In this document: piece by piece, positions 3,184 through 3,544 of the stretch
Position numbering within the stretch: position 1 is the stretch's first letter
Layout of the letters: the number at the start of each line of letters is the position of its first letter
NCBI RefSeq assembly: GCF_003334405.1
Contig: NZ_QOWM01000033.1
DNA length: 4,312 nt
Source of the DNA: Escherichia coli
GTDB taxonomy: Bacteria > Pseudomonadota > Gammaproteobacteria > Enterobacterales > Enterobacteriaceae
Strand: one strand, 5' to 3'
The notes under the pieces: generated by a model
The model's input: only the letters and a program-made list of their open reading frames with translations
Databases searched by the model: none
Told to the model about the DNA's origin: nothing
Translations under genes and position numbers: made by a program

Positions 3184-3479
3184 AAGCATGTTTCTGGCGG
3201 TCATAGCTCTATCGGCAAAGCGATATTTGCCATGGCGCGTCACAGTTCTGTTGAATGGGTTAATGGGCAGGAGGGTAACACCAGATGGGGAGGAATAATA
3301 AGAAAAAATCTCTGCCAGGAAGCTATCGTTGAAAAGCAATGTGACAGATATTCCATCTGATAAAAAGAATTATGGTTTAGCAGGAGCGCATTGTTGAGCA
3401 CAATGATGTTGAAAAAGTGTGCTAATCTGCCCTCCGTTCGGCTGTTTCTTCATCGTGTCGCATAAAATGTGACCAATAA

Positions 3480-3537
3480 AACAAATTATGCAATTTTTTA
3501 GTTGCATGAACTCGCATGTCTCCATAGAATGCGCGCT
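3480..3537 (+). promoter_or_regulatory. Promoter of the thrU-tyrU-glyT-thrT-tufB operon: AT-rich UP-like tract (3480-3500), -35 TTGCAT (3502-3507), 17-bp spacer, -10 TAGAAT (3525-3530), GC-rich discriminator GCGCGCT (3531-3537)
   Basis: Hexamers and spacing read directly. The GC-rich discriminator and AT-rich upstream tract fit the architecture of stringently controlled stable-RNA promoters. Position is about 8-15 nt upstream of the mature thrU 5' end. Not verified experimentally here. Confidence 0.65.
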
Positions 3538-3544
3538 ACTTGAT

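Follow-up and report, generated by a model that had tools for sequence, protein, structure and literature searches.

The window, a stretch of 4,312 nucleotides of Escherichia coli DNA, maps to positions 4171844-4176155 of the K-12 MG1655 chromosome (NC_000913.3), so that a genome position equals the window position plus 4171843. Its right-hand part contains the divergently transcribed neighbors coaA, which encodes pantothenate kinase, and the tRNA operon that runs from thrU into the elongation factor gene tufB, with a 361-bp intergenic gap between them (Table 1). The original prediction, made from the letters of the DNA, described this gap as a divergent control region of coaA and the tRNA-tufB operon, and the placement of the genes by open reading frame, ARAGORN and RefSeq confirms that description; each of the sequence strings quoted in it also occurs at the coordinates given with it. 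Complete E. coli genomes by the thousand contain the gap in 100% identical form. A search with the Rfam 15 covariance models returned the four tRNAs as the sole matches at E≤1, none of them inside the gap. Some gene callers begin coaA at an alternative in-frame ATG (3189-3187), which gives a 318-aa form of the protein.

To compare the region among species, one genome per species was scanned with the CoaA protein, which yielded 80 Enterobacteriaceae loci, and Salmonella and two Erwiniaceae (Mixta and Pantoea) were added, together with 97 metagenome contigs retrieved by the pattern of the conserved block upstream of coaA that we call block B (Table 1). In all readable loci coaA adjoins thrU, across a gap of 316 to 1091 bp. 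Separate alignments were made of the 230 bp nearest thrU and of the 200 bp nearest coaA.

Table 1. Features of the window, in window coordinates; promoter-relative positions of FIS sites are counted from the inferred thrU start.
Feature	Position	Strand	Basis and remarks
rrnB operon tail	left end of window		
murB	214-1242	+	
birA	1239-2204	+	
coaA, pantothenate kinase, 316 aa	2233-3183	-	open reading frame and RefSeq b3974
coaA start codon ATG	3183-3181	-	
Intergenic gap between coaA and thrU-tyrU-glyT-thrT-tufB, 361 bp	3184-3544		
coaA 5' untranslated region, 81 nt, no Shine-Dalgarno	3184-3264	-	mean conservation 0.50
coaA promoter, extended -10 sigma-70 class	3264-3309	-	conservation, published start, Reg-Seq footprints
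Conserved block B, CATCTGGTGTTACCCTCCTGCCCATT	3262-3287	-	extended -10, C-rich discriminator, start A3264
Extended -10 of coaA, TGtTACCCT	3280-3272	-	
Conserved block A, TTTTTTCTTATTATTC	3293-3308	-	T-rich -35 and upstream region
Reg-Seq "repressor" signature, -37 to +1 of coaA	3264-3301	-	PMC7567609, supplement 3
Two inverted repeats of the original prediction	3389-3423		present, not enriched, not conserved
Predicted FIS site III, GTTGAAAAAGTGTGC	3408-3422		centre -123; 7.9 bits
Predicted FIS site II, GGCTGTTTCTTCATC	3440-3454		centre -91; 6.1 bits; at -91 in 13 species
FIS site I, GCATAAAATGTGACC	3460-3474		centre -71; 10.0 bits, best in the gap
UP-element-like tract, A/T-rich, conserved	3475-3501	+	sequence; conservation 0.79
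thrU (tufB operon) core promoter	3502-3544	+	hexamers and 3531-3544 invariant in 78 species
thrU -35, TTGCAT	3502-3507	+	
thrU -10, TAGAAT	3525-3530	+	17-bp spacer from -35
thrU discriminator, GCGCGC	3531-3536	+	
thrU start	about 3538 (+/- 1)	+	inferred from the -10 hexamer; followed by a short leader to the tRNA
thrU, tRNA-Thr(UGU), first gene of the operon	3545-3620	+	ARAGORN, Rfam, RefSeq
tyrU, glyT, thrT, then tufB	right of thrU; tufB starts at 4101	+	

On the thrU side of the gap, positions 3458-3544 are near-invariant among 78 species and the last 14 of them (3531-3544) are conserved at 100%. The thrU promoter had been placed at 3502-3530, and the two hexamers are found there at the expected spacing, directly followed by the GCGCGC discriminator; both are conserved across the 78 species, with the -10 hexamer reading either TAGAAT or TAAAAT. 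Immediately upstream, 19 of the 22 positions from 3479 to 3500 are A or T, a composition that is conserved, and an invariant palindrome, ATGCAA-N8-TTGCAT (3488-3507), extends into the -35 hexamer. The tract at 3475-3501 may act as an UP element. A G+C-rich discriminator is typical of promoters under stringent and growth-rate control, and with its weak -35, good -10, G+C-rich discriminator and A/T-rich UP-like tract the thrU promoter would be of the stable-RNA type. A strict consensus promoter scan of the gap missed this promoter because TTGCAT matches the -35 consensus at three of six positions, and it missed the coaA promoter described below because the -35 there is poor, as is usual in the extended -10 class, so that both real promoters of the gap escape strict consensus scans. 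The matches that such scans did return, at 3341-3370 on the plus strand and 3397-3369 on the minus strand, are not conserved and were rejected as promoters.

Farther upstream of thrU, FIS sites were sought with an approximate, symmetric matrix assembled from the consensus ATTGGTTAAATTTTAACCAAT (PMC2018646) and published logos; on this matrix the consensus scores 14.6 bits, against 14.9 bits as published. The best FIS-like match in the gap is site I, at 3460-3474, which is the very element that the original prediction had nominated about 70 bp upstream of the thrU start. In E. coli alone the match is marginal, with P=0.05 for an equally good best match in 2000 dinucleotide shuffles, and it is the comparison among species that we take to be decisive. 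In 82 of 82 orthologous regions position -71 carries a site that scores 6 bits or more, represented by 26 distinct 15-mers; positions are counted here from an assumed start at 3538, the selection at 6 bits itself imposes the motif on the tallies, and the shared ancestry of the species means that the 82 are not independent events. The bases G-7, A-2, A-1, T+3 and C+7 are found in all 82 sequences and A-3 in 81, and variation is free at positions -6, -5 and +6; conservation of the site tracks the bases critical for FIS, namely G-7, A-3, T+3 and C+7, while the non-critical ones drift. Mixta and Pantoea retain the -71 site despite their diverged sequence.

Counted in the same way, with the assumed start and the 6-bit selection applying as before, sites of at least 6 bits are found at -91 in 13 of the 82 species (Escherichia and Citrobacter; 7 distinct 15-mers), at -102 in 46 other species (34 distinct 15-mers) and at -123 in 63 (47 distinct 15-mers), which gives a second site at -91 or -102 in 59 of 82. 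The many distinct sequences all carry G-7 and C+7. In Salmonella the scores are 8.2 bits at -71, 9.4 bits at -102 and 11.1 bits at -123. The predicted sites lie 20, 31 and 52 bp from site I, distances that put them on one helical face. We propose that in E. coli FIS dimers probably bind at -91 and -123 as well as at -71 and that, aligned on the same face of the helix, they would bend the DNA and help RNA polymerase, in the manner of rrnB P1 and tyrT.

That FIS activates the tufB operon, which the original prediction gave as established knowledge, is borne out by the literature, with FIS binding and activation at thrU(tufB) published in 1990-91. An experimentally verified FIS site, "thrU-87", appears in PMC2018646 with a strength of 10.9 bits and a citation of Bosch et al. 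(1990); it is similar in strength to 3460-3474 (10.0 bits) and may be the same site. The growth-rate-dependent control of thrU owes part to FIS (PMC2885671), and a paper of Verbeek (1991), by its title as cited in PMC7408454, bears on FIS activation of thrU(tufB). The upstream activating sequence of thrU(tufB) (Bosch, Nilsson, Vijgenboom and Verbeek, 1990; Verbeek, Nilsson and Bosch, 1991) belongs to the same locus in the same organism, and that system, in which FIS binds upstream, bends the DNA and activates, shows no difference in kind from the one described here. Two elements go beyond it as predictions of the present analysis, namely site III at -123 and the alternation of the second site between -102 and -91 from one species to another. 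FIS sites are located near -71, -91 and -122 in tyrT and near -71, -102 and -143 in rrnB P1. All three promoters have in common a proximal site at -71 with further sites, in thrU predicted ones, at whole helical turns, an A/T-rich UP-like tract before the -35 and a G+C-rich discriminator. With its predicted sites II and III, E. coli thrU (-71/-91/-123) resembles tyrT, whereas in most other Enterobacteriaceae (-71/-102/-123, predicted) the second site is rrnB-like; thrU differs from rrnB P1 in having a TTGCAT -35 with a 17-bp spacer, compared with 16 bp in rrnB P1.

The coaA side of the gap departs from the original prediction, which had seen no good sigma-70 match for coaA: an extended -10 element, TGtTACCCT, is present, and the start that follows from it is the published one. 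Of all the non-coding DNA on this side of the gap, the coaA promoter shows the highest conservation. Blocks A and B, separated by a variable spacer of 4-5 nt (3288-3292), show a mean identity of 96% in 80 species, against 36-50% in their flanks. The TG and the hexamer bases T1, A2 and T6 are invariant in the 80 genomes and in 96 coaA-linked metagenome contigs, and the common variants of block B all fall at the n of TGn or at hexamer base 3, the two positions that extended -10 promoters tolerate. Block B occurs as a single copy in E. coli genomes and is retained in Erwiniaceae and in the 96 coaA-linked contigs, where the element persists as TG[T/G/A]TA[A/C]CCT. Among the metagenome matches 96 of 97 have block B in a coaA-upstream context, at 83-135 nt from the coaA start where the contig reaches the gene. 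A few of these contigs end before coaA, and one of the 97 is a chance match in G+C-rich DNA. The -35 candidate, TTATTA (3301-3296), matches the consensus at three of six positions, and no good -35 hexamer is present.

The start at A3264 was predicted from the extended -10 before the published site was found. The coaA entry of the Reg-Seq supplement (PMC7567609) gives 4175107, on the reverse strand, as the only experimentally validated transcription start site, attributed to Song and Jackowski (1992), and this position corresponds to window position 3264, 8 nt past the -10 hexamer. The architecture reported by Reg-Seq is that of the same promoter, with a "-10" footprint from -17 to -7 (3271-3281) on the extended -10 in block B and a "-35" footprint from -45 to -30 (3294-3309) on block A, and mutations in these two regions lower coaA expression in several conditions (Ireland et al., 2020; PMC7567609). 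Like other extended -10 (TGn) promoters, that of coaA has the TG one base upstream of the hexamer, keeps T1, A2 and T6 and has a poor -35; it differs in the unusual C-richness of its hexamer (TACCCT) and discriminator, and in the near-invariance of -44 to +2 over two families, which is more than normal. The leader carries no Shine-Dalgarno sequence, as the original prediction had noted, the best anti-Shine-Dalgarno duplex reaching just +0.2 kcal/mol, compared with -4.3 for murB, -6.4 for birA and -6.3 for tufB. A structured leader was considered and rejected (fold z-score -1.16). The coaA promoter would thus be a weak one, in which an extended -10 and a poor -35 within a T-rich tract feed an 81-nt leader that lacks a Shine-Dalgarno, an arrangement that fits a low abundance of pantothenate kinase.

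We are confident, on these grounds, that the gap contains two separate sigma-70 promoters, each firing away from the other. Their divergent start sites would lie about 274 bp apart, and the DNA between the promoters (about 3310-3400), with the inverted repeats of the original prediction, would be an unconstrained spacer. In this model the positions, conservation and motif matches come from the present analysis. The literature supplies the binding of FIS to thrU and its activating effect there, the start site of coaA and the footprints of mutations in the coaA promoter, and we infer the exact thrU start, the occupancy of FIS sites II and III and the function of the UP element. Among the peaks listed in an RpoD genomic SELEX paper there is none for coaA or thrU, which we count against the model, and the Cappable-seq supplement has no match at the coordinate prefixes searched, for which the older U00096.2 numbering was assumed. 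The locus is in the main ordinary and previously studied biology, on which the central point of the original prediction was correct and already known: the activation of the tRNA-tufB operon by FIS is a textbook case of growth-rate control, and mapping of the start site of coaA dates from 1992, so that little changes there. What the check adds is that a reader of the bare sequence had placed the FIS site rightly, and that the inverted repeats can be dropped as leads.

These repeats, CATTGT-N5-ACAATG (3389-3405) and AGCACA-N15-TGTGCT (3397-3423), do exist with perfect 6-nt arms, and it is their significance that did not survive. Inverted repeats with perfect 6-nt arms set 3-20 nt apart number five in the gap against 1.9 +/- 1.7 in shuffles (P=0.08), which is within chance, and the arms are conserved at 33% and 46%, with other Escherichia species breaking one or both of them without compensation (ACAATG becomes AGAGTG, ATAATG or AGAATG). 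Transcription of either operon starts downstream of the repeats, which are therefore in neither mature transcript, and Rfam has no match at them. That they are operators of a dimeric regulator or RNA hairpins is therefore extremely improbable; judged by this comparison they are chance features, and the TGTGCT arm makes better sense as the right-hand end of predicted FIS site III. Another reading concerns site I itself: the conserved segment 3465-3486 (AAATGTGACCAATAAAACAAAT) could be a class I CRP site at about -62 that replaces or overlaps it, or could be bound by NtrC. The pattern expected of a class I CRP site is TGTGA-N6-TCACA with its centre near -61.5. The segment contains a perfect and conserved TGTGA, and as TGTGA-N6-AAACA, centred at -62.5 and overlapping site I, it scores 12.2 bits (cross-species median 11.8), against 15.9 bits for the lac site, on a rough CRP matrix that is our own approximation. 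The matches of at least 8 bits on this matrix in the whole 4.3-kb window number two and both fall within the gap, the other lying at 3337-3358 with 12.3 bits. Moreover, FIS alone does not require the degree of conservation seen at G+2, G+4 and A+5 in site I, which counts against a model with FIS only. The right half of the CRP match, however, agrees at just three of five positions (AAACA or GAACA, against TCACA), and our literature search found no link of CRP to thrU or coaA. For NtrC, a genomic SELEX peak at 4,173,336 in its paper's own coordinates was assigned to the coaA/thrU spacer, and it would presumably fall near window position 3470 if the older U00096.2 numbering applies; SELEX-chip is, however, an in vitro assay of coarse resolution. 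The DNA-binding domain of NtrC is related to that of FIS, and NtrC may merely read the FIS site. With direct published support for FIS binding at thrU, we consider a CRP or NtrC site in this place improbable and retain FIS as the factor at site I.

For the near-invariance of the coaA promoter, one explanation lies on the opposite strand, where block B could owe its conservation to a small ORF of 15 codons (3285-3332) that is translated from the plus strand. Here AGGAGG (3269-3274) forms a very strong Shine-Dalgarno (-10.8 kcal/mol) 10 nt ahead of an ATG (3285-3287) with which block B ends exactly and which most species retain. The start is nevertheless missing from at least seven species and reads ATT in about 10, and in Klebsiella, Raoultella, Atlantibacter and other genera the ATG has become ATT, AAT, ATA or GTA. 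Indels of a single nucleotide change the frame, so that the peptide reads NNKKK in one set of species and IIRKN in another, and the ORF can be as short as 2 codons or as long as 50. Upstream of it no promoter was found on the plus strand, and it is absent from the K-12 annotation. On the loss of the start codon and the changes of frame we rejected the small ORF, and regard translation as a very unlikely cause of the conservation. A remnant of a GNAT gene was also looked for in E. coli, and none was found. By-eye comparison of block B with the consensus sequences of sigma-54, -32, -24 and -28 showed spacing or conserved bases that do not fit, and these too were set aside.

The explanation that deserves more attention would not replace the sigma-70 promoter of coaA but add to it: blocks A and B (3262-3308) may also serve as an operator, bound by a sequence-specific repressor through which the amount of pantothenate kinase is set. 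Reg-Seq reports one newly discovered repressor site for coaA, with no factor named, at -37 to +1 in nine of the ten listed conditions (PMC7567609). The near-invariance, moreover, spans 45 bp and includes positions that polymerase does not read specifically, namely the spacer from -23 to -18 and the C-rich discriminator; ordinary polymerase contacts do not explain why these are invariant, and the pattern suggests that something beyond polymerase may act there. The left half of block B, ATCTGGT, equals a half-site of the FadR/PdhR type. A FadR/PdhR-type operator in block B was nevertheless rejected, since the left half-site alone fits and a common C/A polymorphism at 3275 hits, in the right half, the ACC that a GntR-type operator needs. 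Against any repressor it can be said that the block has neither dyad nor direct-repeat symmetry, that the motif occurs solely upstream of coaA, so that no regulon is visible, and that the Reg-Seq signal shows no dependence on condition (PMC7567609). Where a promoter is weak and both its -10 and its discriminator are C-rich, expression would rise with many mutations, and these would leave a repressor-like footprint where no repressor binds. Reg-Seq infers its repressor from just such expression-raising mutations, and conservation cannot separate a repressor from a promoter tuned to be weak (PMC7567609 for the Reg-Seq call). We therefore hold the repressor as a tentative addition, with odds somewhat against it, and keep beside it the alternative that the promoter is tuned weak and its up-mutations mimic a repressor.

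If the former were correct, a dedicated DNA-binding factor would recognize 3262-3308 and adjust how strongly pantothenate kinase is transcribed, and through it the coenzyme A of the cell, a proposal that we likewise advance only as a possibility. Such a factor would be the "repressor" signaled by Reg-Seq (PMC7567609); a variant is discriminator-dependent control, for example by ppGpp/DksA. The observation that calls for an explanation is that a weak promoter has been conserved base for base in two families (Enterobacteriaceae and Erwiniaceae) and bears a repressor-like mutational signature. Pantothenate kinase is the rate-controlling enzyme of coenzyme A synthesis, and to our knowledge its control is currently seen almost wholly as feedback inhibition of the protein. 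The conservation and the signature together suggest an uncharacterized control of coenzyme A synthesis at the level of transcription.

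The gap between coaA and thrU, the first gene of the tRNA-tufB operon, accommodates an additional gene in part of the family. In 13 species, among them members of Kosakonia, Atlantibacter and Buttiauxella, a gene of roughly 190 codons encoding a GNAT-family acetyltransferase separates thrU from coaA and is read from the coaA strand, and it is because of this gene that the gap measures about 1.05–1.09 kb in these species. C-terminal remnants of the gene persist at three further orthologous loci (L019, L020 and L038); a search for such a remnant in E. coli detected none. The carriers also share a perfect hairpin of 8–12 bp, GTGATGCTTTC...GAAAGCATCAC, present in all 13, located upstream of block A, the conserved −35/upstream part of the coaA promoter. 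The hairpin has decayed in the species that do not have the acetyltransferase gene, and E. coli retains of it only a degenerate left arm, GTCACATTGCTTTTC. We consider it probable that this hairpin is the terminator of the GNAT gene.

Several open reading frames extend into or across the control region. The coaA frame is open upstream as far as a TTG codon at 3339, which would yield a protein of 368 aa, and in-frame ATG codons occur upstream of the coaA start at 3189 and 3204; CoaA versions of 318, 325, 368 and 424 aa are found among public gene calls and are most likely products of over-extended start assignments. The 57-aa frame called in Salmonella, which may correspond to the STM4141 named in PMC6735719, resembles a 51-aa minus-strand frame in E. 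coli, and both are probably spurious. Antisense to the coaA promoter, a 15-codon frame is preceded by a very strong AGGAGG Shine-Dalgarno sequence (−10.8 kcal/mol) placed 10 nt ahead of its ATG. This Shine-Dalgarno–ATG layout is retained in most species; comparison of the encoded peptide across species revealed no conservation.

Features of the coaA/thrU gap and their coordinates (E. coli window unless a locus is named)
Feature	Position	Strand	Remark
GNAT-family acetyltransferase gene	L021 1691-2278	coaA strand	also at L023-L027, L030, L032, L039, L040, L066, L072, L076
Hairpin	3320-3345 (aligned)		upstream distance to block A about 15-20 nt (L019-L081)
Open coaA frame	3184-3339	-	
15-codon ORF with Shine-Dalgarno	3269-3332	+	
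57-aa ORF	L085 (Salmonella) 1176-1349		spans thrU promoter and FIS region
51-aa ORF	3370-3525		
Palindrome	3488-3507		ATGCAA-N8-TTGCAT
Direct repeats	3338-3374 and 3466-3490		
CRP-like match	3337-3358		centre about -83.5 from coaA transcription start
CRP-like match	3465-3486		centre -62.5 from inferred thrU start

Closer to thrU, an invariant palindrome has the −35 hexamer of the thrU promoter as its right arm and carries its left arm within the UP-like tract. The direct repeats form two short pairs, AATGTGACAGATA/AATGTGACCAATA and ATAAAAAGAATTATG/ATAAAACAAATTATG, and lend the spacer a likeness to the region of FIS site I and the UP-like tract ~120 bp upstream, a likeness that may reflect either chance or an old partial duplication. 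NtrC genomic SELEX gave a peak, at 63% of maximum, assigned to the coaA/thrU spacer (PMC8743547). A rough matrix picks out two CRP-like matches (TGTGA-N6-xxACA or xxCCA), each of about 12 bits, and these are the only ones in the 4.3-kb window. If the NtrC coordinates follow the older U00096.2 numbering, the SELEX peak would fall near window 3470. Most Enterobacteriaceae have a predicted second FIS site at −102; its predicted position is −91 for Escherichia and Citrobacter and −112 for Mixta and Pantoea. Judged from sequence, this putative site appears to have shifted between lineages and yet to have stayed near whole helical turns from site I.
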